Positions 17,243 to 39,218 of a stretch of 64,000 bases of DNA are shown piece after piece. The notes beneath the pieces are model-generated. The model did not search any database, was not told the DNA's origin, and saw only the letters and a list, made by a program, of their open reading frames with translations. The position numbers and the translations under genes were made by a program. Each line of letters starts with the position of its first letter. The first letter of the stretch is position 1. This stretch comes from an uncultured Alphaproteobacteria bacterium (GTDB lineage: Bacteria; Pseudomonadota; Alphaproteobacteria; Methylaequorales; Methylaequoraceae): NCBI GenBank assembly GCA_902550225.1, contig CACCYL010000002.1, forward strand, positions 13,539 through 77,538, written 5' to 3'.

Positions 17243-17961
17243 GGAATTTTCCATTAGACAAGGGTTTACCAAGTGTAGATTATATAGTTAAGAACTGGCC
17301 TAACACAAAATGTATTTTAAAAAAATATATTTTGTCAAATCATAAACAACCCAATTTATACTCGATAGCTATAATATGTTTGAAAGAGTTAAAAGTTTTT
17401 AAGTTAAAAGACTATAAATCAATTATTAGAAAATTATCAAAATTATGTTTAAGAAATACTTGTTTCAATACATATCATGATTCTCATCACTTTAAGTCAG
17501 TTTTGGTAATTTCATGCATATTAGGAAAACAATTAAATTTAAAATATAAGGATAGGCTTTTATTGGTCATAATAGCCCTTACTCACGATATGAATCATCA
17601 GGGTAGGAGGATACTTATTAGCAAACCATACTATCAGGAATTAAAAAGCTATGCCGGATTAGAAAAAATTTTATTCAAAAAAATCTTTGTTTTTAAAGAA
17701 TTGAAAAGGATTAAGAAAATATTTGAGAGTACCTTTTTCCCCGTTAAACCAGAAAATGTAGTAGATGATCTTGAGAAAATAATTTTAGATGCTGATATAT
17801 TATCATCCCTAATGTTTGGTCCGCAAGTTGGAGTGAAACTCGCTAGAAGACTGAAACAAGAAATTAGGTATAATGATGACTCTGAACTACTTTTTTCAAA
17901 TTTTCTTAAACTTTTAGGGGGAAAATGTTTATATCTAGATTATTCAAAAAAATCATGTTAA
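17239..17961 (+). CDS. HD-domain protein with class I cyclic-nucleotide phosphodiesterase-like motifs
   Basis: YHDSHH, ALTHDMNHQG, ILDADI; ATGA overlap with the cyclase stop. Confidence 0.7.
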   Translation: MRNFPLDKGLPSVDYIVKNWPNTKCILKKYILSNHKQPNLYSIAIICLKELKVFKLKDYKSIIRKLSKLCLRNTCFNTYHDSHHFKSVLVISCILGKQLNLKYKDRLLLVIIALTHDMNHQGRRILISKPYYQELKSYAGLEKILFKKIFVFKELKRIKKIFESTFFPVKPENVVDDLEKIILDADILSSLMFGPQVGVKLARRLKQEIRYNDDSELLFSNFLKLLGGKCLYLDYSKKSC

Positions 17962-22963: not shown

Positions 22964-25618
22964 GTGTATAATGAAAATCAAATAAATGTCATTAAAATTG
23001 ACAAAGTAGACTCAATACGATCATCTATTGAAGGTCTAAAAGACAAGCTTTTTATCAATGATCTTAAAAAAGATCTTCAAGAATTCATAGATACAAATGT
23101 TGAATTAGATAAAAGCAATAATCATTTAAAAATCCCAACAATTAAAGAGGCTCCCTCTTGGTTTCCGAAAGCTAACTTATCAAAAACGCAAACGGATTTA
23201 ATAGCAACATCAGTTGATGGCGAAGAATTCATTTTTTTTGATTATTTTACAAATCATCGACTCCCATCTATCCAAACAGAAAATGGTTTAAATTTTCATG
23301 GAGGTTTAGTAGATAGGTTGGCTGGTTTATTTGCAAAAGGTCAGTATGTTCAGGCGTCTCTTGATGGTGAGTTATCGATCGGAGAAGTGTCGAGTTTAAC
23401 GGGTGTAGCCAAAGCAAAACGAGTTGATGGTAGCGAATTTAACTTATCAAATGGTGACCCTGTATTTCAAGGAGATACAATAACAGTTTCAAATTCTGGT
23501 GCGGTTGGTCTGACATTTTTGGATAAAACCACGTTATCTTTATCGGAAGGTGGAAAGATGCTTTTAGATGAGTTGGTTTATAATCCTGAAACTGGGGATG
23601 GGAATATGACTATCGACATGGTTGAGGGTGCATTCAGTTTTATAAGTGGAGAGATAGCAAAAACTGGAGAAGATGCCATGACCATAAAAACGCCTGTTGC
23701 AACCATCGGAATTAGAGGAACTACAGTTGCCGGTAAAGCTGCGGTGGAAGGAAACGAAAACTCATTTACTTTACTTCAGGATGCCGATGGAGGAGTAGGG
23801 CAAATATCTATCAGTAACGCTGGAGGCACACAAATACTAGAACAAGTTGGTGCAACCACAAGTGTAGTAAGTTTTAATGCCCCACCACCTCCACCAATTA
23901 TTTTAAGCGCTGCACAGATTCAAGCTAATTATGGAACAGCTTTAAACGTTTTGCCACCTACACCAACTGTAGCACCCACACCGCAAGAGGTTCCAGCACA
24001 ACAAGATCAACAGCAAGAAGAAGCTCAAGAAGAAGCTTCAGAAGAAGAATCTGATGAAGAAGCAGAAGAAACTTCGGAAGAAGTTATAGAAGAAGAAGGT
24101 TCTTTAGAAGGAGAAGAGGAATTAGCTGAAGAGGAGGAATCAATAGAGGAAGAAATAGCAAGAGTTGAAGAAGATTTATTCGAGGAGGGTGCTCCAGAGA
24201 ACCAAGCACTAGCAGAAGAAGAGGTCGTAGCGGAAGAAGAACTAGCTCTACCACCTGAAGAAGCTCAACCTGGAGGTGATGAACAAGCTGCTCGAGAAGC
24301 CTTTGATACTGCACTTTCAGCTGGAGCATCTCCTGAACAAGCAATGGCCGAAGCAGCCGCAGCCGCTGGTTTTGATGAATCTGTGGCTCGAGAATCAGCA
24401 CTAGATAGTGGCCCATTAGGAGACCCTACTTTTGCACAAACATTTGCTCCTGGAGTTGGGGGGACAATATTAGGTTTACCACTTGGACCTGAACCAATCA
24501 ACGCTAGTCAAGATTCTGTAATGATACCGGTTTTTGGAATGGGGCCAGCATTTGGATCTGCAACAATGGATGTATTTGGAGGTCAGTTAAGTGGGAGATT
24601 TGAAAACTCTCTTCAAGCTGCTTCTGGTTTTGGAGACGAAATATTTGGATTTTTGGATGAAAATCCTTATAGTTTTTCTGATACAGAGTCTTCTGAAAGT
24701 TATTTTTTTGACGATCCGTCACTTTATGATGATTACAGGAAACAAGATTTTGATCAATCAACAGAAATCTCAAGTTCACAAACAACAAATACTTTTGATG
24801 GTACAAATTTAAACGACACCATTGATAAATCTTCTGAAACCGCAAGTGTCATCATAAATGGATTAGATGGAGCCGATACACTTGAAGGAGGAATAAATAA
24901 TGACACAATTAATGGAGGTGATGGGATTGACAAACTAGTTGGTAATCAAGGTGATGATATTTTAAGAGGTGATGATGGTAATGATTTTATTTTTGGAGGT
25001 GATGGTAAGGACAAATTGATTGGAGGTTTGGGCGATGATGAACTTAACGGTGGTGACCAAGATGATGTAATTGTTGGAGGTCTAGGTAGCGATACTCTTT
25101 ATGGAAATGATGGTGACGACAAATTTTATTTTGAACCAGGTCACATAGATGGAACTTCAAAAGATGAAATAATTGATTTTAGAGTGAGTGGTAATGATTT
25201 GATTGTCGGTTCTCAAGCTCCTTCGTCAGCTTATAATCGAAGTTCAATACATACAGATTCGTCTCAGTTTGGTAGTAACTATGATATTACCAGTAACTCC
25301 AATGAGTTACCCTACTTATTCAATTTTACCAATGATGTAACAACAGCCATTGCTGAGAGTTCTTCTGCTCTTGCTAATCACTTCACTGGTTTTTCAATAA
25401 GTGTAAGTGGAAGTGGAACTAATGATTTTGAAAATGAATCAATGTACATAAGCGTAGGTGACGGAACAGATACATATATTTGGTTTTGGACAGACACCAA
25501 TAATCATCATGGGATGATAGCTGATAGCGAACTTGAACCATTTGCTAAACTAAGTAATTATGATAATGATAATTTAACTGGTAACGAATTTTTATTTCAA
25601 ACAATTTCTGGAGTTTAA
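22964..25618 (+). CDS. Paralogous T1SS cargo: FecR-like domain + Glu-rich linker + RTX Ca-binding repeats
   Basis: FecR-like block nearly identical in protein to that of 19401; 10 tandem GGxGxDxLx-type nonamers (~24860-25130); GTG start uncertain. Confidence 0.85.
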   Translation: MYNENQINVIKIDKVDSIRSSIEGLKDKLFINDLKKDLQEFIDTNVELDKSNNHLKIPTIKEAPSWFPKANLSKTQTDLIATSVDGEEFIFFDYFTNHRLPSIQTENGLNFHGGLVDRLAGLFAKGQYVQASLDGELSIGEVSSLTGVAKAKRVDGSEFNLSNGDPVFQGDTITVSNSGAVGLTFLDKTTLSLSEGGKMLLDELVYNPETGDGNMTIDMVEGAFSFISGEIAKTGEDAMTIKTPVATIGIRGTTVAGKAAVEGNENSFTLLQDADGGVGQISISNAGGTQILEQVGATTSVVSFNAPPPPPIILSAAQIQANYGTALNVLPPTPTVAPTPQEVPAQQDQQQEEAQEEASEEESDEEAEETSEEVIEEEGSLEGEEELAEEEESIEEEIARVEEDLFEEGAPENQALAEEEVVAEEELALPPEEAQPGGDEQAAREAFDTALSAGASPEQAMAEAAAAAGFDESVARESALDSGPLGDPTFAQTFAPGVGGTILGLPLGPEPINASQDSVMIPVFGMGPAFGSATMDVFGGQLSGRFENSLQAASGFGDEIFGFLDENPYSFSDTESSESYFFDDPSLYDDYRKQDFDQSTEISSSQTTNTFDGTNLNDTIDKSSETASVIINGLDGADTLEGGINNDTINGGDGIDKLVGNQGDDILRGDDGNDFIFGGDGKDKLIGGLGDDELNGGDQDDVIVGGLGSDTLYGNDGDDKFYFEPGHIDGTSKDEIIDFRVSGNDLIVGSQAPSSAYNRSSIHTDSSQFGSNYDITSNSNELPYLFNFTNDVTTAIAESSSALANHFTGFSISVSGSGTNDFENESMYISVGDGTDTYIWFWTDTNNHHGMIADSELEPFAKLSNYDNDNLTGNEFLFQTISGV

Positions 25619-25670: not shown

Positions 25671-27260
25671 ATGAAGTTTTGGTTTCACATATTAAAAGAA
25701 AGTAACTCTCTAAATACTATTCTTTTATTGACTTTTTTTATTACTATAATGGGTTTATTAAGCCCAATTTTTATTATTCACATTTTTAATAGATATATCG
25801 CATTTGGCCTTCAGGGTACTTTGTTTTTTTTATTATCAGGTGCTCTTTTAGTTGCAGTATTCGAGTATATATTTAGGAATATAAGGAGTAAAATTTTATG
25901 TGAAATTCTCATAAATCCAATAAAATTTTTTAAATTAGACCTAATCAAAACATTTTTTGAGAGAGAAAATAAAACATCAAAAAGAAATTTTGTTGAAATA
26001 ATTGATTTCAACAATAATTTTTTTCAATTCATATCACCTAAAGTTCAGTCAAATCTTCTCGACTCAATTTTTGCAATTTTAATTATTATTATTCTTTTTT
26101 TTCTAGACCTTTTATTAGCAACAATTTTTTTAATTCTTGTTATTATTTTCCTGTTATTGCAACAAAGATTAATAAAAAATAAAAATCTAAACTTGGAAAG
26201 ATTAAATTTATCTAAGAATGATAAATTAATAATTAAAGAGATTGGAACTAATCAAGAGCTTTTAAAATCTACTCTAGCATTTAAATATTCTGGATATTAT
26301 CTAGAAAATTACTTAAATAAAAAATTAAAAATCGACTCTTCAACTGCAAATTTTGATGCTCAACAAATTTCCACCACGAGTTTTTTTGTTTTGTTATCAT
26401 CAATCATTACTATTGGATTTGGGAGTATCTTTGTGGTGAATGGAAATCTCTCTATTGGTAGCCTGATAGGATTTAATATATTTGCTACTCGAGCGTTGGG
26501 TACAATTTCATCAGTTCAAAATTCATATTCCATTATTGAGAGAACAAATATGTATCTTAGTGATTGCCAAGATTTTTTTAAAAATTCTAAAAATCGAGTT
26601 GAGGGTATGCAACTTAGTAAAATTATTGGGAATTACAAACTTAAAAATGTAAACTATTCTTTTGATAATGATAATAAGTATATAATTAAAAATTTCTCTG
26701 CTAATTTTAATTCTTCAGAAATTTCAGTTATTAGCGGAGCGAATGGCTCCGGAAAGACCACAATTGCAAAATTGCTCATGGGACTAATTAATCCAGAATC
26801 TGGAGATATTTTATTAGATGAAACTAATTTGGAGAAACTATCATTGCAATGGTATAAGAATCAAGTAGCTTATATACCTGAAGATGTTGAAGTGTTAAAT
26901 TCATCAATTTTAAATAATATTTTAATATCCAACCCTGATCTGAATGAACAAGAGGTAAGTAGACTGCTTCAAAATGTTGGATTAGATAAAGAGTTAAAAA
27001 AATCAGATTTAACAATAACTGATTCTATAAATAAAAATTATTCAAAAGGGATTTTAAAAAAAATACATATTGCACGGTCGATTTCAAAAATCTATCAAAT
27101 TTATATTTTTGATGATCCGTTATTATATCTAGATAAATTAGGTAAAAATATGGTACTTAAATTGATAGCCTCATTAAAAAGAGCTGGAAAAACTGTAATT
27201 TGTTTTTCAGAAGATACTGAAATTATTAAATTAAGTGATAAACAAACTAATTTAGGGTGA
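25671..27260 (+). CDS. T1SS ABC transporter (TMD+NBD) with degenerate ATPase motifs
   Basis: Walker A GANGSGKT; signature YSKGI, Walker B IYIFDD, no switch His (CFSED). Confidence 0.85.
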   Translation: MKFWFHILKESNSLNTILLLTFFITIMGLLSPIFIIHIFNRYIAFGLQGTLFFLLSGALLVAVFEYIFRNIRSKILCEILINPIKFFKLDLIKTFFERENKTSKRNFVEIIDFNNNFFQFISPKVQSNLLDSIFAILIIIILFFLDLLLATIFLILVIIFLLLQQRLIKNKNLNLERLNLSKNDKLIIKEIGTNQELLKSTLAFKYSGYYLENYLNKKLKIDSSTANFDAQQISTTSFFVLLSSIITIGFGSIFVVNGNLSIGSLIGFNIFATRALGTISSVQNSYSIIERTNMYLSDCQDFFKNSKNRVEGMQLSKIIGNYKLKNVNYSFDNDNKYIIKNFSANFNSSEISVISGANGSGKTTIAKLLMGLINPESGDILLDETNLEKLSLQWYKNQVAYIPEDVEVLNSSILNNILISNPDLNEQEVSRLLQNVGLDKELKKSDLTITDSINKNYSKGILKKIHIARSISKIYQIYIFDDPLLYLDKLGKNMVLKLIASLKRAGKTVICFSEDTEIIKLSDKQTNLG

Positions 27261-27264
27261 AAAG

Positions 27265-28536
27265 ATGACAGAGAAATGGGTAAAATGGAATTTATTAAAA
27301 AACGATGAAAAACCAAAAAACGTTATTAGTAAAAGACTTAAAGTATCATTAATTCTTTTCTCACTTATTTTTTTGTTGCTAGTGAATTTAAAAATTATAG
27401 AGGTATTAAGCCTAGCTGACGGAAAAATAATTCCCCAAGGAAGAATAAAGTATGTGCAACATTTGGAGGGAGGAATAGTTGAAGAAATACTGATTAGTGA
27501 AGGTGAAAAAGTTGAAATAAATCAACCTTTAGTTGTTTTATCGAAAGAAAAAGCAAGCTCTGAATTTGAGGAGATTAACTCAAGACTTAAATCAATTGAT
27601 TTGTCGATACTAAGAGTTAATTCTGAAATAAATTCTAATAATTCAATAGAAATTCCTGAAAATAAAAATAATTTATTTGATGAGGAATTAGTAAAATCTG
27701 AAAATGAACTTTTTCAAAGTAGAAGAAAAGCAATCAATTCTGAAATAAAGTCTAAGAAAGCAAGTATTGATAAAGCTAACAAAAATCTCAAAAATTTAAA
27801 AAAAAGATTAAAAATCGTTAAAGAACAAGAAGATATTAGTCAAAAATTGTTAGAAGTTGAAGCAACAAATAGATTAAAGCATTTAGAAATTTTAAGAGAA
27901 AGGCAGGAGGTTGAAGGGAGTATCGACGAACAACAATCTATTATTGATTTGAGCAAGAATGACTTAGAAAAGGTGCAAAACAATTACATAGAAGATTTAA
28001 ATATCGAGTTGTCAAAGTACCGAAAAGAAAAAGAAGAACTTAATAAAAGAATTCAGAAATATTCAGATAACTTAAATAGAACTATTTTAAAAAGCCCTGT
28101 ATCTGGAACAGTAAAACTTGTATCGGTAAATTCTAAAGGTGCTATTGTTGCTCCTGGTGTGACTGTAGTTGAAATTGTACCTGAAAATGAAAAACTAATT
28201 ATTGAGGCAAAATTACCTTTATCAGAAATTGGCTATGTAAAAAAGAACCTTGAAGCAAAAATTAGATTAAATACACCTGAAGGCTCTAGGTTTAGATCAA
28301 TAAAAGGGAATGTTGTTTTTGTAGGGGCTGATAGAATTTCTAGTAAAGACGAAGAGGGTTTTTATTTAGTCAAGGTGGAAACCTCTGAAAACTCTTTTGC
28401 ACGAAAAAACGAGGAATATAAACTTTTGTCTGGTGTTCCAGTTATGGTTGGTATTATAACTGGTAAAAGAAGTTTTATGGATTATTTCTTAACGCCTTTT
28501 ATAACAGGTGCAAGCTTTGCATTATCTGAAAGGTAA
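27265..28536 (+). CDS. HlyD family T1SS membrane fusion protein
   Basis: VQHLEGGIV, coiled coil, KSPVSGTV, GKRSFMDYFLTP. Confidence 0.93.
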   Translation: MTEKWVKWNLLKNDEKPKNVISKRLKVSLILFSLIFLLLVNLKIIEVLSLADGKIIPQGRIKYVQHLEGGIVEEILISEGEKVEINQPLVVLSKEKASSEFEEINSRLKSIDLSILRVNSEINSNNSIEIPENKNNLFDEELVKSENELFQSRRKAINSEIKSKKASIDKANKNLKNLKKRLKIVKEQEDISQKLLEVEATNRLKHLEILRERQEVEGSIDEQQSIIDLSKNDLEKVQNNYIEDLNIELSKYRKEKEELNKRIQKYSDNLNRTILKSPVSGTVKLVSVNSKGAIVAPGVTVVEIVPENEKLIIEAKLPLSEIGYVKKNLEAKIRLNTPEGSRFRSIKGNVVFVGADRISSKDEEGFYLVKVETSENSFARKNEEYKLLSGVPVMVGIITGKRSFMDYFLTPFITGASFALSER

Positions 28537-28537
28537 A

Positions 28538-28837
28538 TTATTTTACAGATGATTTGGAAATTGTTTCAGATTTGAATATTACGCCGTTTTTTTGAGAATT
28601 GAGTTTTAAATGTTTGTAAAGCTCATCAAAAATAACATTTCCTTTTCTTTCTTTGACAATGAGAGTAAGAATATCTGCTTCACTAGCATCACCAAATTGC
28701 TGTATGTCAAAAATATCTGTGGCTCTACCATTAGCATAACCCACTGAAATAACGTCTGAATTTTCAGAAAACTTTTTAACAACTTTTTGTCCTAAACCTT
28801 TTTTTATTAAGCCACCAATTTCAATAAACTTTGACAT
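28538..28837 (-). CDS. Divergent PII-like protein
   Basis: Paralog-like to 28840 (YANGRAT vs YARGTG; KNGVIF vs GKGIM). Confidence 0.6.
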   Translation of the reverse strand: MSKFIEIGGLIKKGLGQKVVKKFSENSDVISVGYANGRATDIFDIQQFGDASEADILTLIVKERKGNVIFDELYKHLKLNSQKNGVIFKSETISKSSVK

Positions 28838-28839
28838 AT

Positions 28840-29196
28840 TTATCCTCCAGCTCGTTTGATGACATCTTTAGGTATATAAGTCGCAACTCTGTCAAGTTTA
28901 ACCATCCACATTATACCTTTTCCAGGTGTATCAAGATTTCCTGCTAAAAACATTGATTCAAAGACTCTGTTCGATTGTTCTTTAGAAACTATAATTCTTA
29001 TTATTTCTTTTTGTTCATCTATAGTTACTCCAAGAAGTCCCATTCTATCTCTAATGCCTGTACCCCTGGCATAATTAATTGTTGCACCTTGCGCTCCAAC
29101 ACTGGTGGCAGCATCTATGATTTTATCGGCTAGACCACTTTCAACAACACAAGTGATTAAAAAAACGTCTGTTAAATAAGTGATATCTCTGGCCAT
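28840..29196 (-). CDS. PII-family regulator
   Basis: GAQGATINYARGTG, KEIIRIIV, LDTPGKGI. Confidence 0.88.
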   Translation of the reverse strand: MARDITYLTDVFLITCVVESGLADKIIDAATSVGAQGATINYARGTGIRDRMGLLGVTIDEQKEIIRIIVSKEQSNRVFESMFLAGNLDTPGKGIMWMVKLDRVATYIPKDVIKRAGG

Positions 29197-29208
29197 AATT
29201 TTTTCCTT

Positions 29209-30909
29209 TTAGTTATTTTTTTGTTTAAATTGTATATATAGTCCCATTAGGAGTACAGCAAGAATTGGACAAATACTTGCCATAGATAGAATACCAAAAC
29301 CTTCAGTGGCGGATACAGCATTTCCTAGACCCAGACCCATAGCCAGAACAAGTGGTACTGTTACCGGGCCGGTTGTGACTCCAGCACTGTCCCAGGCGAC
29401 ATTAACAAATTCTTCAGTTGAAAAGTAAGTTAAAACAATTGCAAGAAGATAAAGTGGTATTAAAACGGTTGCTAAGTCAAAAGCAAATACAATTTTTCCA
29501 ACACCTAAGGCTATACCAAATGCAACACCCCCAGCAACACTATACATTAACATTGACTTTTTGAAAGCACCATTGGTAAGCTCTTGAACTGTCAAACCAA
29601 GGGCATTAAGTGCGGGCTCAGCAAGCGTTGCTCCAAATCCTAAGAGCCAAGCGAAAAGAATTACTATAGTTAAACCCAATAATTCGTTGTAAATTGGTGA
29701 TACTTCACTTATTGGGACTTCCATAAAGGCGGCAGGAAGATTGGTTCCAGCTTGTCCACCTATAGCTCCTAAACCATATGTGAGTCCTATATTGAAGACA
29801 CACATCCCAACAATGGACAAAGTTAACCCATAAGTTGTTATCATATTATTAGGAAGTTTAGATCTAAGGATTACAAAAAGCACAATCATTAAAAATATCA
29901 CAAGTGGGAGTATTGCACGAACTCCTCCAATAATTTCAACATACGGGGTTTGTGACCACTTAGAAACCTCTCCTATGGTCATATCTGAAGCCATACTAGT
30001 CGAAGCAATTATTTCCTCAACTGAGATTGTCTGAGAAACATGTATAGCAAGAATCAGAACAGCGATAATTGGAAATAATGAAGCCATTGTAACGACGCCG
30101 AAACCAGAAAGAGATGAATCTCCTTTACCAGCTGATGCTGCAATTCCAATACCTAGTGATAGCACAAGAGGTACAGTAACTGGTCCAGTTGTAACAGCAC
30201 CACAATCCCAAGCTAATCCGAGAATAGTTCTTAAATCAGGATTACTCCATACATATGCAGTAAGAATTATTGTTGGTGCAAGAGCTGCATAAATCATAGG
30301 TTTTAGAGACCAACCTTTGACAAACCTTATTGTTCCAATGATGGCTGCTAATCCAACACCAGCACCGACCATTACAACTAAGGTTTCACTTCTATTGTTT
30401 AGTATCTCATACAGATACGGTGCGTCCTGAGGATTTATTGACGAACCAAATGCTTTGAGTGCTCCAATAGCTGGTTCCGCATAAGTTACTCCCACCCCAA
30501 GTATTCCAATAATAATTAAAACAAGAACCATTGGTGCTTTTTTTGGTAATGTGTCACCAATTACATTGCCAAATGGCATTAAACCGGTTTTAAGACCTTC
30601 CATAAAAATTGCTAGGCCTATTATTACTGCAATTAATCCTAGACAAATTGTTGTCGCTGAAGAGATCGGTTGTCTTAAAATTAAAAGCTGAAACAGAAAT
30701 AAATATGCTGCAAGTGGAACAACAGCTTTAATTTGTTCCATAACTCTAGAAATCGTGTAAGGTGCTAACAGAGTAAGTGCCTTGGCAGGAGATACTTTAA
30801 TTTTCTGAGGCTTTAGTGATTTTCCTTTAGCTGCCTTCGGCGTAAGAAGATTATAACTTAAAGATTTATGATTTATCTCTGATTCGTGAATGTAATCGGA
30901 ATATTTCAT
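29209..30909 (-). CDS. DUF1538 family membrane protein (two fused domains)
   Basis: AEPA and AWD(C/S)xxVTTGPVTVP and GFG motifs each occur twice; adjacent to PII-like genes. Confidence 0.9.
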   Translation of the reverse strand: MKYSDYIHESEINHKSLSYNLLTPKAAKGKSLKPQKIKVSPAKALTLLAPYTISRVMEQIKAVVPLAAYLFLFQLLILRQPISSATTICLGLIAVIIGLAIFMEGLKTGLMPFGNVIGDTLPKKAPMVLVLIIIGILGVGVTYAEPAIGALKAFGSSINPQDAPYLYEILNNRSETLVVMVGAGVGLAAIIGTIRFVKGWSLKPMIYAALAPTIILTAYVWSNPDLRTILGLAWDCGAVTTGPVTVPLVLSLGIGIAASAGKGDSSLSGFGVVTMASLFPIIAVLILAIHVSQTISVEEIIASTSMASDMTIGEVSKWSQTPYVEIIGGVRAILPLVIFLMIVLFVILRSKLPNNMITTYGLTLSIVGMCVFNIGLTYGLGAIGGQAGTNLPAAFMEVPISEVSPIYNELLGLTIVILFAWLLGFGATLAEPALNALGLTVQELTNGAFKKSMLMYSVAGGVAFGIALGVGKIVFAFDLATVLIPLYLLAIVLTYFSTEEFVNVAWDSAGVTTGPVTVPLVLAMGLGLGNAVSATEGFGILSMASICPILAVLLMGLYIQFKQKNN

Positions 30910-30946
30910 AATCTATCATAACATATTGTAGAAATTAATAAAATCT

Positions 30947-31414
30947 TTATTCAACATGACTTGTTGACTTCTCTAATCTGTAAAGAATTTGCTTTGTTAT
31001 TTTTTTAATTATTTGATTCTCAGACTCTATAATCTCATCTATTTCATCATGAGAATAATGTACATTTTGATACTCATTTCTTTTAGCAAGTTCTTTACAT
31101 AAATTTAAAATTACTTTTTGTGCGGCCTTTGATCCAGAATTAATTAGTTCATCAAGATTTTCTTTACTTATAGATATCAACTCTGTGGATTGACTTGAGG
31201 TAATGGTTGCGCTTCTGTTTTGTTGTAAAATTAAAGCCATTTCACCAAAAACCTCTCCATCTCTCATAGACCCAACTTTTTTTCCATCAACTAATACGTC
31301 CAGCGATCCAGAAACTATCATGTAAGCTTTATCGCCTTTGTCGCCTTGATTAAAGAGCGTCTCGCCCTCTAACATCAAAACTTTTGTTGTTTTTCCGTGA
31401 CTTATCTCTTTCAA
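30947..31414 (-). CDS. Stand-alone cyclic-nucleotide-binding protein
   Basis: LFNQGDKG, FGEMALILQQNRSAT phosphate-binding cassette; no HTH evident. Confidence 0.9.
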   Translation of the reverse strand: MKEISHGKTTKVLMLEGETLFNQGDKGDKAYMIVSGSLDVLVDGKKVGSMRDGEVFGEMALILQQNRSATITSSQSTELISISKENLDELINSGSKAAQKVILNLCKELAKRNEYQNVHYSHDEIDEIIESENQIIKKITKQILYRLEKSTSHVE

Positions 31415-31851
31415 GAAAATATCCTTTGAGATAATCTATAGTGAATCTGAAGCGCTAAAGCTCTTATTACGTTGGGAGAGTCCTTAGTTAGTTTTACAAG
31501 ATCAGCTTTGGTAATTGGAAGTTTTTGGTTATCTGATTTTCCTAATTCCTTAGACATTTCATTAATTACTTTATGAAGATCAATGTTAGAGGATAATAAA
31601 ATAGCTTCCAACGCCTTTCTTTTTATTTCAACAATTTCACTTGGTACAATTGCTTTTATGCTCGCAGTTCTGTTTTCATTTAGAATTAAAGACAATTCTC
31701 CAAAGATTTCACCTGTTTCAATTTTTCCTATCTTTTTTCCTTCAATTTCTGCAACTAGTCCACCTGAAATAACTAGAAAAGCTGTTTCTCCTTTTTCGCC
31801 CTCTCGAACAATATATTGATCTGGAAGAACTCTTATTTTTTTTAAACCCAT
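31411..31851 (-). CDS. Stand-alone cyclic-nucleotide-binding protein
   Basis: IVREGEKG, FGELSLILNENRTAS; paralog of 30947. Confidence 0.9.
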   Translation of the reverse strand: MGLKKIRVLPDQYIVREGEKGETAFLVISGGLVAEIEGKKIGKIETGEIFGELSLILNENRTASIKAIVPSEIVEIKRKALEAILLSSNIDLHKVINEMSKELGKSDNQKLPITKADLVKLTKDSPNVIRALALQIHYRLSQRIFS

Positions 31852-31866
31852 TTAAACCTAATTTTT

Positions 31867-34242
31867 TTATTTAGAGGTTGCGACAAAAACACCATCCCAA
31901 TCTTTTGGGGGAGGATACTTTTTAAATTCATTAATTCTTTCTGTCATCATTTCATAGTAATCTTTCATTAAATTTTTACAAAGTGTTTTTGCCTGAGTCA
32001 TTTCCTCGACAGCATCTTTCCAATTTTGATTAAAATAATGATTTAATACATTTTTATGCTTTTTTTCAAGATTTTTGAAATCAACACTATTTTTAAAACT
32101 TGGATCACCAAGTAAACAAAAAATTGATACAGCTTCTTTTTTTCCTTTTACTGCTAGCATATCAAGTTGGAGTGTAGCAAAAGTATCTTTAACAGCATCG
32201 TTTGTTTCTTGCCCAATAACTGTTTTAACTCCATAACCTTTTGATTGACCTTCAAGACGTGATGCTAGATTTACTGCGTCTCCCAGTACTGAATAGTCAA
32301 ACCTTTGATCCGATCCCATATTTCCAACAACACAACCTCCGGTATTTAGTCCAATTCCAATTTTTAATTCCAAAAAATCTTTATTTTCTGACTTCGCTTC
32401 TTGCTCTCTGATATCGTTAAGTTCTTTTAGTGCTTTATGCATACTTAATGCTGCTTCACAAGAAACTTGCTCATGTTTATCAACATCTATAGGTGCATTC
32501 CAAAAAGCCATAATACAATCTCCCATATATTTATCGATTGTTCCGTTTTTATTTATGATTTCATTAGTAAGAGGTGTTAAAAATCTATTTATAAGTTTTG
32601 TTAGGCCTTGAGGATCTGATTTAAAAGCTTCTGAAATTGTTGTAAATCCTCTTACATCACAAAAAAGAAATGTCATTTTTTTTGTTTCTCCACCCAAAAC
32701 TAATTTATCAGGATCTTCAGCTAATTGTTCCACTAAAGCGGGAGATAGATATTGAGAAAATGCACCCCTTATTTGTTTTTTCTCATTGGCATCACGTAAA
32801 TAGTTTGCAAAGGTGTTACTAAAATAAATTACAAAAGTTGTTACACCTGCAAAGGTTGGATCAAATAAAGTTTTATGTTCAGTAAATAATCTTACACTAA
32901 TATAAAATGCTGAACTTATTATGGTTACAAGTGATGAAATATTTACAATTGGACCAAACTTTAATGCAGATACTGTGATAAATAATGCAAGCAAAATTGT
33001 AAAGAGTGCTTCATAAAATTTCATATTTGCACCAGATTTCAAAAAAGGTGATCCTGAAATTTTAACTTTGTTTTTTTCAATTATTGCTTCTTCTTCACTT
33101 AAACCTTTTTTTAATGCATCTTTATAAACTTTTTCAGAATTTTTTGTGGAAGTATAATAAAGAATTGCTGAAATGACTGTATCAATGAGATTTGCATGAA
33201 TTTCGACACCTGGCATTCTTTCATCGACTGGAGTGGGTCTAATATCCTTTAACCCAGTGGCCGATGTGCCTAATATACCAAGTTTTCCTTGTAATCTATC
33301 TTTGCCGACCCTTCCTTTAATTATATCCACTGCACTTACATAATACCTTGATTTGCCTTCTTTAACTTTTCCAGCATCTGAATCACCATAATAAATCCAC
33401 ACTCTACCATTCTCATCAGTCGGAATAGCAGCATTACCAATAGCTTTAGTTTGAATTATTATTTCTTTAATTCCCGTCAAACCTGTCCTAGTGGCAATAC
33501 TATTTCCTTGAAACGCAACCCTTATCATATCAAGCCCAAGAGTTGGTCTGATTTCACCTGCAACATTTGATATTAAAGGTACTCTTCTAATAATACCATC
33601 TGGTTCTTGTGCAACTGAAACTGTACCAGACCCAGAAGCAGCTTTTTCAAACTCTGTCACATTAGCAAGCAATCCAGGATAAGATATCAACCATTCCTTT
33701 GGATTTTTACCTTTGCCAATAAAAACTTTTACAGATGAATCGTTTATATCATTTCTGTTTGCATCACCTTCAATATCTAATCCCGAGTGACCAATTATTA
33801 CAGGGAACTCATTCATAGCTTCCATTGCTAAAAACTCATTAGAGGGAAGTTCACTTAGTAGTTTGGCAATATTTGGGTTTCGTTTTTCTAAATCTTGAGA
33901 AATCAAATCGGGTGAAGTCCTGTCTTTTTCTGCAAATAGAACATCTAGGCCTAAAACGAGCATGCCCGATTCTTTAGATTTTTTAAAAAGATCAGCAAGT
34001 ACAGTTCTTGGCCACGGCCATTGACCAATTTCTCTAAGAGATTTTTCATCAATATCTACTATTACGGAATAAGTTTGACCATCCGTAGACCTTGGGAATT
34101 TTTTTTGAAGAACATCAAAATACTTTAGTCTAAGAACTTCTACTACTTCAGGATCAGCTATACGAACCAAACCAAAAAGAATAGCCATTAATACAGAAGC
34201 AATAGTAACAATTAGTCTAAAACTTAGCTTAAATTTGATCAT
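31867..34242 (-). CDS. CHASE2-domain adenylate cyclase
   Basis: IVDIDEKSL..GQWPWPR, DGIIRRVPL, GVEIHAN, 3 TM segments, FCDVRGFT, DKYMGDC, YSVLGDAVNLASRLE. Confidence 0.95.
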   Translation of the reverse strand: MIKFKLSFRLIVTIASVLMAILFGLVRIADPEVVEVLRLKYFDVLQKKFPRSTDGQTYSVIVDIDEKSLREIGQWPWPRTVLADLFKKSKESGMLVLGLDVLFAEKDRTSPDLISQDLEKRNPNIAKLLSELPSNEFLAMEAMNEFPVIIGHSGLDIEGDANRNDINDSSVKVFIGKGKNPKEWLISYPGLLANVTEFEKAASGSGTVSVAQEPDGIIRRVPLISNVAGEIRPTLGLDMIRVAFQGNSIATRTGLTGIKEIIIQTKAIGNAAIPTDENGRVWIYYGDSDAGKVKEGKSRYYVSAVDIIKGRVGKDRLQGKLGILGTSATGLKDIRPTPVDERMPGVEIHANLIDTVISAILYYTSTKNSEKVYKDALKKGLSEEEAIIEKNKVKISGSPFLKSGANMKFYEALFTILLALFITVSALKFGPIVNISSLVTIISSAFYISVRLFTEHKTLFDPTFAGVTTFVIYFSNTFANYLRDANEKKQIRGAFSQYLSPALVEQLAEDPDKLVLGGETKKMTFLFCDVRGFTTISEAFKSDPQGLTKLINRFLTPLTNEIINKNGTIDKYMGDCIMAFWNAPIDVDKHEQVSCEAALSMHKALKELNDIREQEAKSENKDFLELKIGIGLNTGGCVVGNMGSDQRFDYSVLGDAVNLASRLEGQSKGYGVKTVIGQETNDAVKDTFATLQLDMLAVKGKKEAVSIFCLLGDPSFKNSVDFKNLEKKHKNVLNHYFNQNWKDAVEEMTQAKTLCKNLMKDYYEMMTERINEFKKYPPPKDWDGVFVATSK

Positions 34243-35963
34243 GGTTCTGCAAAACTATTACCGAGGGTTCTTATAAGTGGATAAATAAAATACGTAATTA
34301 ATCTTCTTTGCCCAACTCTAAATTTTCCTGAGACTTTCATTCCTGGCATTAAATTAAATCCTGGAGGAATATCTTTTAACTCATTTTCTGTTATTTGAGC
34401 TCTAGCCCTATAAAAATTTCCAGGTTTTCCATCGACGTCTTTATCAATTGTGTCAGCAGAAACATAAATGAGCTTTCCTTTTAACTCACCGTGTTTTTGT
34501 GCTGGAAGGGCATTGAGTTGAATTTTAACAGATGTATCCGGAATCAGTTTACTAATATCAGAAGGATCAACATCAAAAACAGTTAATAACTCCACACCTG
34601 TTGGTACCAATGTAACAACACTTTTACCTTGTGTTATTACTGCTCCAGGATATAGAGAATGAAGGTCTAGAATCATACCGTCAGAGGGCGCTCTTACTAC
34701 AACATCAGTTTGTTGTCTTTCAAGTTTTTTTACATCTTCTTGTAGCGACATTCTTTGATCCTCTAATCCAACAAGCTCATCGTTTATTCCTCCAAAAAAT
34801 TGACTGTTATATTCTTTTCTATTAGATTTTAATTCGCTTAGTTTATTGCTTGTTTTTGTGAATTCTTTTTCTAAAGATAGTCTTTTGTTTTTCTCAGCTA
34901 AAACTTGTGATTCTGCTACTAGATCAAGTTCAAATAACTCCAACTTTGAATCTTCTAGCTGCTTTTGTATATCAAGTTGTTCCTTTATAAACTTCAAATC
35001 GTCTTCTGTGGAACCTATTTGTTGATCTAAGGAAGCAATCTTTGCTAAATATTGGTCTTTTTTATCTTTGAAGATTCTGCTTTGTCTTTCGTCATTTGGA
35101 TTTGCAACCGAAACATTATTCCTCAACAATGACTGCTTTTTTAGTCTATCAATTTTTGAATTAACAACTGAAAGCTGATAATCAAGTTTCATTTTATCGG
35201 CTCTTTGAAGTGTAGCATCGAATGTTACGAGTGGATCTCCTTGATTGACACTTTCACCTTTTTTAACAAGTATTTCTTTAACAACAGAATTATAGTTTGA
35301 TTGAACCTCTACATTTGGAACAACGGTAGTTATTTTTCCAGAAGCAGAAATTGTAGTATCAATTTCAGAAATAGTGCCCCAACTAATTAAAAATAAAACT
35401 AGGAAACCAAATGAATAAACTGACATTTTAACAGAACGAGGTACCTGTTTTGTTTTAATTCTATCAATGTCGTCATCAAATTCATCTAATAATTCACTCA
35501 TCATTTTTTTCTTTGATCTATTTTCTTTTTCTTCCTCAGTTAAAACCTCTTCTTGATCTTTGTTATTTTCATTTTCATTGCCAGATTCGAAAGCATCTAC
35601 AGATAATTTTTCGTTTGCATTTCTGGCGTAGCTTGCAAGCTGCTGCATCATATTAAAAGCGGTTTGTGGAGAGTTTTTGAGATAGCCTAGTAAAGCATTT
35701 TGATCAATTTCTTTTACCGTTGTCTCAACTGTCGCTCTTGCCATCGCACTTCTTGGTTGTTTGTCAATTAATGCCATTTCTCCAAACAATGCACCTTTTT
35801 CAAGTATTGATAAAGTGACGTATTCGTCACCGTTGAATTTGCATACCTCTATTTTTCCTTTTACTATTTGATAGGCATAGTCTCCAACTTCACCTTCTCT
35901 AAAAAGTACATCACCTGCAGCTAAATTTCTAACAGCCGGTTGTATATTTTTTTTATCAGCCAT
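34239..35963 (-). CDS. HlyD family membrane fusion protein with N-terminal cNMP-binding domain
   Basis: LFREGEVGD...FGEMALIDKQPRSA, then TM, coiled coil, RAPSDG, LMPGM. Confidence 0.92.
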   Translation of the reverse strand: MADKKNIQPAVRNLAAGDVLFREGEVGDYAYQIVKGKIEVCKFNGDEYVTLSILEKGALFGEMALIDKQPRSAMARATVETTVKEIDQNALLGYLKNSPQTAFNMMQQLASYARNANEKLSVDAFESGNENENNKDQEEVLTEEEKENRSKKKMMSELLDEFDDDIDRIKTKQVPRSVKMSVYSFGFLVLFLISWGTISEIDTTISASGKITTVVPNVEVQSNYNSVVKEILVKKGESVNQGDPLVTFDATLQRADKMKLDYQLSVVNSKIDRLKKQSLLRNNVSVANPNDERQSRIFKDKKDQYLAKIASLDQQIGSTEDDLKFIKEQLDIQKQLEDSKLELFELDLVAESQVLAEKNKRLSLEKEFTKTSNKLSELKSNRKEYNSQFFGGINDELVGLEDQRMSLQEDVKKLERQQTDVVVRAPSDGMILDLHSLYPGAVITQGKSVVTLVPTGVELLTVFDVDPSDISKLIPDTSVKIQLNALPAQKHGELKGKLIYVSADTIDKDVDGKPGNFYRARAQITENELKDIPPGFNLMPGMKVSGKFRVGQRRLITYFIYPLIRTLGNSFAEP

Positions 35964-35969
35964 TTTAAT

Positions 35970-38141
35970 TTATCCGGCCTTTTTTAAAGATTTAATTTTG
36001 TTCTCTACGCCTAAAATAGACATTTGCTTATTATACGTTTGACCAAAATAACCTGAAATTTGTCTTAATTCTTCAAAAGAACCCTGTTGAGATATTTTCC
36101 CCTTTTCAAGCACAAAGATTTTGTTACAAAGTCGAAGATGCCAAACCCTGTTTGATACGATAATTATCGTTCTACCAAGTGCAATATCTGATAGTGCATC
36201 GTATAATTTTATTTCACTGTCAACATCAAAACCTGTGAAAGCATCATCAAGTATCATGATACGAGGGTTTCTAATAAGTGCTCTGGCAATTGCTAGTTTT
36301 TGTCTTAAGCCAGTTGCAAGATTTGTGGCATTTTCCTCTAAGAATGTTTCATATCCATCAGGATAAGACTCAATTTCTTCATGTGCGAAAACTTTTTTCG
36401 CAGCCCAAGTTATCCTGTCCATGGAGGAATTTGGCATTGCACTCGCTATTGTTTCTCTTATTGTTCCTGGAAAAAAATAACTATCTGTTCCAACCAATGA
36501 AACCTGTGATCTTACATGACTAAGATCCAGTAAACGTAGATCTATATTATCCAGAGCCACGATACCAGCCTGGGGTCTATATAGACCCTGAATTAGTTTT
36601 GCGATAGTACTTTTTCCACATCCACTTTTACCTGTAATACCAATTATCTGTCTTGGATTAATTTCAATATCAATATCATTTAATACTTTTGTATTATCAT
36701 CGTATCCAAACTCAACATTTTTAAAACTAACTTGTCCCATAAGTTGAGGTTTTTGGCCTCTGACAGTTGTTTCGGAGTTTGCATCCACTATTCCTGATAT
36801 AATCTGAAGAGATTGAACTAATTTTGTTATTTCTGTTTTAAGTGTAACTAGATCAATTATTGGCTTTGATACTCTGCCGGCAAGCATATTAAAACCTACT
36901 AAAATCCCAGCTGAAAGAGATCCAGAAAATACAAGATGCACCCCTACAAAAATAACCATTGCAGTCATAAGTTGATTTATGGTTGATGAAATATTGTTTA
37001 AAACTGCTGACTTTTTTTGCATTTCTTCATTTGCAATAATATAATTTGCTTCCAAATCTCTCCACTGATCTTTCAAATTAGGTTCAAGAGCAAGTCCCTT
37101 AACATTCTCAATTCCGTTAACAGCAACAGAAATAAATTCTTGTCTTTTTGATTCAGCCTTACTTAAACCAGCGAGCGAATCTCTTTGTTTTTTTGAGTAA
37201 AACATTGATGCTAAAGCTCCTAATATACTAAAAGAAAACACAACAATAAATAGTAATGGGCTATAAAAAAATAGAATGGGAACAAAAACAAGTAAACTAA
37301 TTGAGTCCAGTGCTGTTGAGAAAACTTTTTGCGTCAGAAGGCTTTTGATCTGCGATATTTGGCCTGTGAATCTCAAAAAAGTAGCTGATTCTTTATGAAA
37401 CCTTTGCATTGGTAAAGCAATTAATTTTTCAAAAACTTTAACTGAAAGTTTCGCCTCAACCTTTTGTGAGAAAAAATCAAGAAGATATGACTTTAAATAC
37501 CCGAGTATTCCGTTAAATACATAAGCAACAACTACACCTGAAGTTATAACATATAAAGTTGAATAAGCTTCATAGTTTACAACCTTATCCAAAACCAACA
37601 TCATGAAAACAGCTGGTATAACTGCGAAAATGTTTAAAATCAAAGCTACAATTACAACTTGAAACATAACAGACTTGTTTCTAAAGGATTCACCTATTAG
37701 CCATCCAATTTTTAATTCACTGTCTTCTTCAAATTTTTTAAGTTTGGCTTTAAGAAGTATTACTTCTCCGTTCCAGCCTTTTTTTAATTCTTTTAAATTA
37801 ATTTGTTGAGGTTTCGGACTGGTAACACCAGTATCAAGACATAAAATTGACTTATCATCATCTTTTTCACCCTGAATAACTCTTAAAGCTATTATGTATC
37901 TTCCATTTTTAAGTCTTAAGATCTGTTGTTTTTTAGACAAGAGCTTTACTAGTTCCTTCTCGCTAATTTTGGTTGCTTTTGCTTTTAAATCAAAGGATTG
38001 AGCTAAGTCACACATTTCAGAGGTTCTAAGTTCTCTATCCTCAATTTGAAATCTTTCTGGAATATCATTTGGACCAATATGAACACCTAATTGTCTTGCA
38101 ACTAGAATAATTGATTTTTGAGAACCTCGCATCGCTTCCAT
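35970..38141 (-). CDS. T1SS ABC transporter with C39-like domain and degenerate ATPase motifs
   Basis: N-terminal C39-like region ending WNGEVIL with no evident catalytic Cys; Walker A GKSGCGKS; LATGL signature; Walker B IMILDD; IVSNR switch. Confidence 0.9.
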   Translation of the reverse strand: MEAMRGSQKSIILVARQLGVHIGPNDIPERFQIEDRELRTSEMCDLAQSFDLKAKATKISEKELVKLLSKKQQILRLKNGRYIIALRVIQGEKDDDKSILCLDTGVTSPKPQQINLKELKKGWNGEVILLKAKLKKFEEDSELKIGWLIGESFRNKSVMFQVVIVALILNIFAVIPAVFMMLVLDKVVNYEAYSTLYVITSGVVVAYVFNGILGYLKSYLLDFFSQKVEAKLSVKVFEKLIALPMQRFHKESATFLRFTGQISQIKSLLTQKVFSTALDSISLLVFVPILFFYSPLLFIVVFSFSILGALASMFYSKKQRDSLAGLSKAESKRQEFISVAVNGIENVKGLALEPNLKDQWRDLEANYIIANEEMQKKSAVLNNISSTINQLMTAMVIFVGVHLVFSGSLSAGILVGFNMLAGRVSKPIIDLVTLKTEITKLVQSLQIISGIVDANSETTVRGQKPQLMGQVSFKNVEFGYDDNTKVLNDIDIEINPRQIIGITGKSGCGKSTIAKLIQGLYRPQAGIVALDNIDLRLLDLSHVRSQVSLVGTDSYFFPGTIRETIASAMPNSSMDRITWAAKKVFAHEEIESYPDGYETFLEENATNLATGLRQKLAIARALIRNPRIMILDDAFTGFDVDSEIKLYDALSDIALGRTIIIVSNRVWHLRLCNKIFVLEKGKISQQGSFEELRQISGYFGQTYNKQMSILGVENKIKSLKKAG

Positions 38142-38173
38142 GACAATATAATATATTAATTTTTGATTTAATC

Positions 38174-38213: not shown

Positions 38214-38231
38214 ATTTATAAAGGTATAGGT

Positions 38232-39218
38232 TTAGACTACCTCACCACCATCATTTGGATCGTCAGGAGGTGGAGGCATATCTGCGGGCATATCACCTGG
38301 CATTGGCCCTGGATCTCCCGGAGGAGGTCCTTCTGGACCTTGATGTGCTCCCGCATCGTCCATGTGTGTATGCATGTCACCCATTCCATCCGGAGGAGGT
38401 GGAGGCATTCCATCGCCGTCCATGTCCATGCCTGGAGGAGGTCCCATTGGATCACCCGGAGGAGGTCCGCCTGGTTCTCCTGGAGGAGGTCCACCAGCTG
38501 GTCCACCTTCACCAAATAATGGATCTGGTCCTTCACCACCTGGAGGTGGTGGAGGCATTCCATCTCCATCCATATCCATGCCTGGAGGAGGTCCATCTGG
38601 TCCCATTCCGCCTGGACCCATATCACCTGGAGGAGGTCCGTCTGGTCCGCCGGCCATATCACCTGGAGGAGGTCCGTCTGGTCCCATTCCGCCTGGACTC
38701 ATATCACCTGGAGGAGGTCCATCTGGTCCCATTCCGCCTGGACCCATATCACCTGGAGGTGGTCCGTCTGGTCCGCCGGCCATATCACCTGGAGGAGGTC
38801 CACCTTCACCTGGAGGAGGTCCATCAGGAGCTCCTGGTAAATCACCAGGAGGCGGAGGTGGAGGAGCATCAGCACCTGGTCCCATGTCAGGAACAGGAGG
38901 CATATCAGGACCAAAATCCGAACATGGTCCGTCAGGACAACCATCTAAATGGGTGTCCATAACATCAGAGACAGCGTCAAAAGCCTCTTCTGCACTTGCA
39001 CCAGGGTTTTCAGCCATAAAATCGTTGTATGCACCTTGAGCTGTGTCAGCCATATTCATCATAACTTCGGGGGGCATACCTCCATCAGTCATAACGTCCA
39101 TTGCTGCAGTCATACATTCGTCAAAACTACCTCCACCTTGCATTACGTCAAACGCAGCAGAGCCTGCAGCGTCGCCGAGATCCATAAGTTCAGGAGGCAG
39201 TGTAGTAAAATCTGCCAT
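38232..39218 (-). CDS. Very acidic Pro/Gly/Asp/Met-rich repeat protein, candidate T1SS cargo
   Basis: AAGGAA RBS at 39225-39230, own terminator, located between tolC and ABC; GPDGPPPGDM repeats. Confidence 0.8.
   Translation of the reverse strand: MADFTTLPPELMDLGDAAGSAAFDVMQGGGSFDECMTAAMDVMTDGGMPPEVMMNMADTAQGAYNDFMAENPGASAEEAFDAVSDVMDTHLDGCPDGPCSDFGPDMPPVPDMGPGADAPPPPPPGDLPGAPDGPPPGEGGPPPGDMAGGPDGPPPGDMGPGGMGPDGPPPGDMSPGGMGPDGPPPGDMAGGPDGPPPGDMGPGGMGPDGPPPGMDMDGDGMPPPPPGGEGPDPLFGEGGPAGGPPPGEPGGPPPGDPMGPPPGMDMDGDGMPPPPPDGMGDMHTHMDDAGAHQGPEGPPPGDPGPMPGDMPADMPPPPDDPNDGGEVV

Follow-up and report, generated by a model that had tools for sequence, protein, structure and literature searches.

Degenerate ATP-binding cassettes and a cyclic-nucleotide-binding adaptor in two type I secretion-type loci of an uncultured alphaproteobacterium

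Type I secretion systems (T1SS) are represented by HlyB–HlyD–TolC of Escherichia coli (PDB 7sgr, 8dck), in which an ATP-binding cassette (ABC) protein works together with an adaptor and an outer-membrane factor. The nucleotide-binding domain (NBD) of HlyB carries the canonical LSGGQ signature, the Asp-Glu pair of Walker B, the H-loop His and the Q-loop Gln, and HlyB needs ATP hydrolysis (10.1101/2025.05.27.656419; PMC5018854; here and throughout, statements about published systems follow extracts of the cited sources). Published work leaves the driving force of T1SS open and names an ATP power stroke, an ATP-gated channel, the proton motive force and an electrostatic gradient as candidates (PMC5018854). 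Here we analyse two T1SS-type loci in a stretch of 64,000 nucleotides (hereafter the window; contig CACCYL010000002.1, positions 13,539 to 77,538, assembly GCA_902550225.1) from an uncultured alphaproteobacterium of the family Methylaequoraceae. The ABC proteins of these loci, ABC1 (25671..27260, + strand, 529 aa) and ABC2 (35970..38141, − strand, 723 aa), are real and conserved components of two complete T1SS-type machines. Unlike in HlyB, all four of the NBD elements listed above are changed in them.

The two loci face each other in the window, locus 1 lying on the plus strand and locus 2 on the minus strand. Each machine comprises a TolC-like outer-membrane factor (factor 1, 18007..19344, +, Pfam OEP 186.3 bits; factor 2, 39331..40656, −, OEP 190.7 bits), one or more cargo genes, an ABC protein and an HlyD-type adaptor. 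ABC2 consists of a C39-like domain, a six-helix exporter transmembrane domain (TMD) and a C-terminal, degenerate NBD (Pfam Peptidase_C39 25.3 bits, ABC_membrane 113.9 bits, ABC_tran 94.4 bits), and aligns end to end with residues 16–691 of HlyB. ABC1 is made up of a TMD and an NBD without an N-terminal domain (ABC_tran 80.5 bits); the match of PF00664 to it stays short of E 0.001. Both adaptors exceed the cut-off (208.65 bits) of the curated type I secretion HlyD model TIGR01843, with 288.5 bits for HlyD1 (27265..28536, +), which has no cyclic nucleoside monophosphate (cNMP)-binding domain, and 219.7 bits for HlyD2 (34239..35963, −), which has one. The catalytic Cys had been reported missing from the C39-like domain of ABC2 in a first-pass annotation of this DNA. 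This is borne out, as the Pfam C39 match starts at residue 13 and there is no Cys in residues 1–12; the absence is ordinary, because the C39-like domain of HlyB lacks this residue as well (10.1101/2025.05.27.656419; PMC10986499).

The end-to-end alignment of ABC2, its C39-like domain without Cys, the adaptors and the adjacent genes for TolC-like proteins and acidic cargo are thus features shared with HlyB–HlyD–TolC. The machines are built, and presumably work, like that system, yet fail both the curated score of the family and its catalytic motifs. ABC2 stays below the cut-off of the HlyB-subfamily model TIGR01846 (487.9 versus 725.55 bits). The best NCBIfam model for ABC1 is TIGR03375, of the LssB/LapB type known from the Lap system, yet its score of 206 bits does not reach the cut-off of 693.1; neither does the score against the PrtD-type model TIGR01842 (159.7 versus 510.15 bits). 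One source labels relatives of ABC1 as ‘subfamily C protein LapB’.

Motif positions were assigned by residue-by-residue alignment to HlyB (PDB 7sgr), which gave E 1.6e-99 for ABC2 and E 8.7e-32 for ABC1. The motif strings quoted in the first-pass annotation are all present and fall on the signature, Walker B and H-loop of HlyB, and the alignment agrees with its statements that Walker A is intact in both proteins and that the catalytic Glu and the switch His are missing from both. On the plus strand, ABC1 has an intact Walker A, GANGSGKTT (26736..26762), the string YSKGI at the signature position (27039..27053), the Walker B IYIFDD with Asp in place of Glu (27099..27116) and CFSED at the H-loop position, where His is replaced by Glu (27201..27215). 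On the minus strand, ABC2 has the intact Walker A GKSGCGKST (36606..36632), LATGL at the signature position (36306..36320), the Walker B IMILDD, again with Glu replaced by Asp (36243..36260), and IVSNR at the H-loop position, with Asn instead of His (36147..36161). The Q-loop Gln is replaced too, by Thr in ABC2 (LVGTDS, 36480..36497) and by Glu in ABC1. An aromatic A-loop residue is retained (Tyr in ABC2, Phe in ABC1), and the D-loop reads TGFD in ABC2 and LYLD in ABC1. Also reported to be retained in both proteins are Ser and Gly at the signature and Asp in Walker B and in the D-loop. ABC1 ends 14 residues past the H-loop position, so that its NBD is about 30 residues shorter than that of HlyB. 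With LSGGQ, Asp-Glu, the H-loop His and the Q-loop Gln taken as the marks of a catalytically competent NBD, neither ABC2 nor ABC1 qualifies.

The loss of Glu, His and signature with Walker A kept recalls the exporters with one degenerate site, namely TM287/288, TmrAB, TAP1/2, MRP1 and CFTR (PMC7756269). Degenerate sites of this kind are described as binding ATP tightly without useful hydrolysis (PMC7756269). In those exporters, however, the degenerate site stands beside a consensus site (PMC7756269), whereas here all sites that the two proteins could build are degenerate, and the search for a consensus partner described below yielded none. Neither ABC1 nor ABC2 offers a canonical signature or a Glu/His pair and, therefore, no consensus site can be formed from the two, as the first-pass annotation had concluded; this is true of the homodimers and of an ABC1/ABC2 heterodimer.

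The same annotation had raised the possibility of a partner encoded elsewhere. A search of the PF00664-type exporters of 41 genomes of the window's family (incomplete assemblies, nine of them at least 90% complete) speaks against it, as no consensus T1SS ABC was found among them. In the window's own genome, PF00664 recovered an MsbA-like protein, ABC2 and a partial open reading frame (ORF) at a contig end; across the 41 genomes it recovered only MsbA-like proteins, ABC2, ABC1 (weakly) and weaker matches to exporters of about 445–620 aa. No HlyB-, PrtD- or LapB-like protein with consensus motifs was found in these incomplete assemblies and, with ABC2 as query, no consensus T1SS-type ABC appeared in the family genomes at E ≤ 1e-40. 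Outside the family, none of the loci from the genome collection described below has a second exporter gene beside the ABC2-type cassette. The third, weak PF00664 match, at the end of contig C1, was considered as a T1SS partner and rejected, its counterpart in genome G009, the one examined among the weaker matches, being canonical and lying among sugar-modifying (polysaccharide) genes.

The degenerate states of ABC2 are conserved within the family. Of the 36 other family genomes searched, 29 contain an orthologue with 71–99% identity (in three cases a fragment at a contig end), and the best match outside the family falls to 34% identity. The 20 ABC2 loci that were read (81–100% identity) all share the state of the Q-position, L[AS]TG[LMF], D-D, [ST]GFD and S-N-R, together with Walker A. 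An alignment of orthologues had been proposed in the first-pass annotation, with canonical motifs in orthologues as a sign of local decay or sequencing error; the degenerate states are the same in 20/20 loci. Pairwise dN/dS has medians of 0.016 in the TMD, 0.027 in the NBD and 0.063 in the C39-like domain, which shows strong purifying selection on ABC2; the motif loss is not the product of decay or sequencing error. Of the slow or stalled export that had been suggested, stalling is unlikely for ABC2 in view of these dN/dS values of 0.016–0.063; slow export is taken up below.

ABC1 is found in 27 of 37 family genomes. Wherever one contig carries both genes, the distance to ABC2 is about 10 kb. 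The protein measures 527–537 aa across 22 full-length orthologues. The alignment of its orthologues agrees with the expected loss: among the 23 rows showing the NBD, the His is absent from all, and Asp stands in place of the catalytic Glu in 21 and Glu itself in two. The signature has the form xSxGx in 23/23, and Walker A is retained wherever it is visible. The Q-loop Gln is present in 15 of the 23 rows, the Glu of the window being limited to the eight closest rows, and all rows share the same short C-terminus. Homologues of ABC1 are confined to the window's family (42–98% identity, then at most 29%). ABC1 is a lineage-specific, faster-evolving variant with the same losses, which would serve the adjacent FecR/RTX cargo, one protein of which is likewise strongly depleted in Lys and Arg. 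In one relative, L036, the contig that carries the ABC1 locus also holds an intact ABC2, 99% identical to that of the window.

Beyond the family, sequence comparisons place ABC2 in a widespread and well-supported clade, found in several proteobacterial lineages and marked by progressive degeneration of the NBD. In a profile-free search of 1.84 billion cluster representatives the window's family forms one 50% cluster, and the next six clusters (29–39% identity) all have non-canonical signatures with varied losses of Glu, His or Walker A. A scan of a genome collection with a three-sequence alignment yielded 56 loci, 51 of them with a full-length ABC gene and 50 also with an adjacent adaptor ORF. 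By the titles of their records, these loci come from Terasakiella, Piscirickettsiaceae, Ectothiorhodospiraceae, Magnetococcales, Rhodospirillaceae, SAR116 and the window's own group. A non-canonical NBD occurs together with a cNMP-domain adaptor in 47 of the 50 and a canonical NBD with a plain adaptor in the other three (two Planctomycetota, one Burkholderiales), with no mixed case; within the clade, the gene for the cNMP-domain HlyD adaptor comes after the ABC gene.

A metagenome scan with the adaptor alignment yielded 80 loci, of which L105–L118 match beyond the cNMP domain and the other 66 are generic cNMP domains. L109 is a SAR116-like locus of the ABC2 type, and L113–L115 have an altered signature with Glu and His retained. 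At L111:1806-9935 and L112:757-8891, a distant ABC2-type gene without Walker A lies between a Lys/Arg-free ORF and a cNMP-domain adaptor, with a TolC-like gene and a CHASE2 cyclase alongside. The relatives lacking Walker A (L111, L112, P0122 and P0123) are intact ORFs. In a quick IQ-TREE analysis of 45 rows, with 12 canonical rows as the outgroup and some long branches that call for caution, the 33 non-canonical rows form one clade (SH-aLRT 100). The fewest changes on this tree are one for the SGG signature, four for the Walker B Glu, five for the H-loop His and three for Walker A. Such counts alone cannot separate gain from loss; loss is the natural reading because the outgroups are canonical.

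Two comparisons served as controls. In the window's genome, 21 non-UvrA NBDs were compared. Glu and His occur together in 17 of them, the His alone is missing from one, and both residues are missing from three, namely ABC1, ABC2 and a small ATPase encoded on contig C3. With 17 of the 21 NBDs canonical in a genome of about 30% G+C, base composition was rejected as an explanation of the motif loss. The gene on contig C3 (C3:22582-23244, outside the window) codes for a stand-alone small ABC ATPase with the signature LSNSQ, a Walker B followed by Gln and no H-loop His. Of the 150 HlyB-like cluster representatives listed, 60 were compared: 49 have the canonical motifs (xSxGQ, Glu, His), the ten that deviate all carry the TMD motif of the ABC2 clade, and the remaining one differs trivially, with FSGGE but both Glu and His.

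The adaptor of locus 2 also differs from its counterpart in the E. coli system. HlyD has only a small cytoplasmic N-terminus, whereas HlyD2 has a full cNMP-binding domain there, in residues 12–97 on the cytoplasmic side of the membrane helix (Pfam cNMP_binding, PF00027, 70.4 versus 27.5 bits; HlyD_3 56.8 bits). The N-terminal cytoplasmic domain of HlyD is reported to touch HlyB and to be required for the recruitment of TolC (10.1101/2025.05.27.656419). The phosphate-binding cassette of the HlyD2 domain (pattern Gly-Glu ... Arg-Ser/Thr-Ala) is intact and canonical in its residues: G57, F60, G61, E62, R71, A75 and A77 are invariant in eight diverse adaptors. A complex prediction for the C39-like domain and NBD of ABC2 against the cNMP domain of the adaptor with cyclic AMP (cAMP) gave a score of 0.00 and a mark of 0.32, and carries no weight either way.

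A cNMP-type domain that is required for function is described for a peptidase-domain ABC export system in HetC of Nostoc PCC 7120 and the cyanobacterial cNMP-associated bacteriocin exporters (TIGR03896; PMC10986499), and HlyD2 matches TIGR03896 weakly and below threshold (30.2 bits versus a cut-off of 161.05). HetC carries this domain on the ABC protein itself; the ligand bound in vitro is ppGpp and not cAMP, and HetC cannot do without its catalytic Glu (PMC10986499). Here, in contrast, the cNMP domain is on the adaptor and has a canonical phosphate-binding cassette, and the catalytic Glu is absent. In the literature outside subscription-only papers we found no description of a T1SS ABC with all sites degenerate or of an adaptor with a cNMP domain.

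The likely cargo of system 2 is a protein of 328 aa (38232..39218, −), rich in Pro, Gly, Asp and Met and without a Pfam family. It contains no Lys and no Arg, 48 Asp and 12 Glu (60 acidic residues), 86 Pro, 74 Gly and 35 Met. For system 1, the likely cargo comprises two FecR-domain proteins. One, of 1160 aa (19401..22883, +; Pfam FecR 28.8 bits), has Gly/Pro-rich repeats and is acidic and poor in Lys (16) and Arg (5); the other, of 884 aa (22964..25618, +; FecR 27.7 bits), has RTX repeats. The calcium-binding nonapeptide repeats (HemolysinCabind, PF00353) reach 52.7 versus 23 bits in the 884-aa protein and are absent from the 1160-aa and 328-aa proteins. The Gly/Pro-rich repeat region of the 1160-aa protein (window 20001-22000) has a G+C content of 54%, versus about 30% for the genome, and long spurious ORFs in the other frames.

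Similar ORFs accompany the clade. We defined them by K+R below 2%, D+E above 12% and a position immediately ahead of the ABC gene on its own strand, and counted them over the 51 loci that offer 400 bases or more of upstream sequence. A Lys/Arg-poor acidic ORF of this kind lies directly upstream of the ABC gene in 42/51 loci, a proportion that overstates independence because many of the 51 loci are close kin. It is seen in Terasakiella, Piscirickettsiaceae, Magnetococcales, SAR116 and Rhodospirillaceae-type loci and in L111/L112. In the window's genome, two of the 1090 long ORFs have this composition, and they are the 328-aa and 1160-aa proteins, each adjoining an ABC system. A homologue of the two FecR-domain proteins of the window, 1068 aa in length, stands beside the ABC2-type cassette at L087:6330-9533, in a lineage where ABC1 was not seen; ABC2-type systems may thus handle FecR-type cargo too.

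Contigs from four marine metatranscriptome runs (four studies) cover parts of the ABC2, HlyD2, cyclase, DUF1538, P-II and cargo genes; such contigs may contain DNA, and they cannot rank genes or show strand, ends or level. No run contained more than 15% of the sampled words. Contigs on ABC1 are few and short (those listed include pieces of 242 and 320 bases), which we do not read as silence. Over the cargo gene (window 38100-39147), the summed contig depth is 82–502 in all four runs, versus at most about 34 in any neighbouring bin, and many of the contigs omit 36–396 bases within the repeats of this gene. The deep coverage could reflect strong expression together with variation in repeat number, or else contigs of relatives piling up on sequence of low complexity.

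The conserved block of about 26 kb to which the two machines belong also holds two class III cyclases, three cNMP-binding domains and a DUF1538/P-II pair. From TolC-like factor 1 to a Sel1-repeat gene beyond TolC-like factor 2, its synteny is preserved in a genome (98% complete) from another genus. On the minus strand, HlyD2 is followed by a CHASE2 class III cyclase, a probable adenylate cyclase (31867..34242; Pfam CHASE2 158.8 bits, Guanylate_cyc 71.1 bits), and by two single-domain cNMP-binding proteins of 146 aa (31411..31851; cNMP_binding 55.6 bits) and 155 aa (30947..31414; 65.6 bits). Next come a tandem DUF1538 membrane protein resembling UmpA/UmpB (29209..30909; DUF1538 358.5 bits, the NCBIfam models UmpA and UmpB staying below their cut-offs) and a P-II-like protein (28840..29196; P-II 31.1 bits), the last gene of the minus-strand block. 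The DUF1538 and P-II-like gene pair stays with the ABC2 operon throughout the window's family. At the head of locus 1 there is a GAF-GAF-PAS class III nucleotide cyclase (14936..17242, +; Pfam GAF 131.4 bits, Guanylate_cyc 81.7 bits, PAS_9 25 bits and thus below its 27-bit cut-off). It is followed by a 250-aa protein (17209..17961, +) that is possibly an HD-type phosphodiesterase, with sub-threshold Pfam matches only (HD E 0.011, PDEase_I E 0.062). Since this cyclase and the 250-aa protein precede locus 1, both secretion loci are flanked by cyclic-nucleotide enzymes.

The loss of the ATP-splitting residues is conserved in many relatives and, therefore, the machines are probably driven or switched in another way. 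It seems to us an almost evenly balanced possibility, and we adopt it tentatively, that they are nucleotide- and cAMP-controlled gates rather than hydrolysis-driven pumps. ATP hydrolysis would then no longer be the power stroke in the ABC2 clade. The NBDs would have become latches that bind nucleotide, and would be left with a structural role only in those relatives whose degeneration has gone furthest. Such latches would open or assemble the ABC–adaptor–TolC conduit under the control of cAMP bound to the cytoplasmic domain of the adaptor, and the membrane potential (inside negative), extracellular events or both would move the unfolded, acidic cargo free of positive charge. By our rough estimate, some 60 net negative charges moving across about 0.15 V would correspond to the free energy of well over ten ATP. 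In a broader version, which we consider conceivable but doubtful, the whole T1SS clade would have given up ATP hydrolysis, and its most degenerate members ATP binding too; the ABC protein would serve as gate and docking platform, the cAMP sensor of the adaptor as an on/off switch, and the membrane potential would drive electrophoretic export of the cargo. CFTR, as an ATP-gated channel, may offer an analogy of function, with an ABC fold, nucleotide binding that gates a passive conduit and an extra regulatory input. However, CFTR keeps one hydrolytic, gate-closing site (PMC7756269) and conducts chloride rather than a polypeptide, and there is no sequence relationship beyond the ABC fold.

Several observations weigh against such gates. 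Hydrolysis-dead HlyB does not secrete (PMC5018854; 10.1101/2025.05.27.656419), and Asp can serve as a weak base, so that slow hydrolysis is conceivable. The link between the cNMP-domain adaptor and the degenerate NBD rests on a single origin and is therefore without statistical weight; at L118, a distant cNMP adaptor (28% identity) adjoins the C-terminus of a canonical ABC protein. Terasakiella L049 and Piscirickettsiaceae L051 and L053 have Lys/Arg-free cargo yet retain Glu and His, and such cargo alone therefore does not make hydrolysis dispensable. Nine of the 51 loci have no Lys/Arg-poor ORF upstream. It is lacking at the canonical Planctomycetota loci L068 and L069 and at L087, L092, L113 and L115; the ORFs of L052 and L056 exceed the limit with 3.2% and 2.4% K+R, respectively, and L065 has a Lys/Arg-poor acidic ORF downstream instead, on the opposite strand. 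ABC1 evolves about ten times faster than ABC2 (dN/dS about 0.3 in both domains) and may be partly dispensable, and in L036 it is broken by one TAG and one TAA stop (G006:C6:38882-40467). The limits of the RNA-library contigs given above belong here as well.

The main rival to controlled gates is slow residual hydrolysis. The machines would then be ordinary T1SS pumps in which Asp acts as a weaker base and Asn or Glu partly replaces His, a state tolerated or favoured in a slow-growing, energy-limited marine cell; we regard this as possible without being likely. Walker A, the aromatic A-loop residue, the Asp of Walker B and of the D-loop and the Ser and Gly of the signature are conserved, as would be expected if Mg-ATP is sandwiched in the dimer. 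Walker A is strictly conserved in the family and the NBD of ABC2 strongly constrained, complete tripartite loci are conserved together with their cargo genes, and secretion by HlyB requires hydrolysis (10.1101/2025.05.27.656419; PMC5018854). However, four catalytic elements (Glu, His, Gln and signature) are altered together, and sites of this type are described as holding ATP without useful turnover, beside a consensus site (PMC7756269). The ABC2 relatives that have lost Walker A are still intact and syntenic, and the repeated change of catalytic residues on the tree suggests a relaxed need for catalysis. It is also conceivable, and in our view distinctly unlikely, that ABC2, adaptor and TolC no longer secrete protein and form a cAMP-linked scaffold or sensor, or a gated conduit for small solutes such as cAMP, with the NBD in a structural or ligand-binding role. 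A downhill conduit needs no ATP hydrolysis, the degeneration of the NBD extends to loss of Walker A in relatives, and the locus lies amid cAMP genes, with two cyclases, three cNMP domains and a P-II-like protein. Against this, the C39-like domain for cargo docking is conserved (dN/dS 0.063), 42/51 loci have a dedicated Lys/Arg-poor acidic ORF directly upstream, the adaptor exceeds the curated cut-off for type I secretion HlyD proteins, and system 1 has clear RTX/FecR cargo genes.

Two further explanations appear highly improbable. In one, a heteromer would restore one working site, formed either by ABC1 with ABC2 or by one of the two with an ABC protein from elsewhere in the genome. The two genes are on the same contig about 10 kb apart in every relative in which both were found, and RtxB–RtxD–RtxE of the four-component MARTX system is a precedent for two ABC proteins in type I secretion (PMC3034196). 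RtxB and RtxE, however, share one operon and one adaptor, whereas ABC1 and ABC2 each have their own adaptor and TolC-like protein. The lack of a canonical signature or Glu/His pair in either protein argues against a heteromer as well, as do the ABC2-type cassettes of other lineages, which have neither ABC1 nor another exporter nearby. Moreover, homologues of ABC1 are restricted to the family, and no other T1SS-type ABC was seen in the 41 family genomes. In the other, the genes would be decaying relics, pseudo-enzymes on the way to loss, or would owe their motifs to assembly or sequencing errors. The fast evolution of ABC1 (dN/dS about 0.3), its short NBD and the two stops in one relative would fit such decay. 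Both ORFs are intact in the window, however, and ABC1 has kept its length and motif pattern in 22 full-length orthologues with dN/dS below 1. For ABC2, this explanation is largely refuted by orthologues in 29 further family genomes, identical motif states in 20 loci and dN/dS of 0.016–0.063.

T1SS-type ABC proteins that lack the hydrolytic residues form a set that is natural, conserved and widespread, and this set bears on the open question of what powers the movement of polypeptides. It would provide a case of an ABC exporter whose nucleotide sites are all degenerate, and it presents a graded series from a change of the signature only to complete loss of Walker A. With such a clade, a cargo without positive charge and a cyclic-nucleotide sensor, the question of power becomes testable on wild-type proteins instead of engineered dead mutants. 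These loci also suggest that abundant marine bacteria with streamlined genomes control secretion directly through second messengers.

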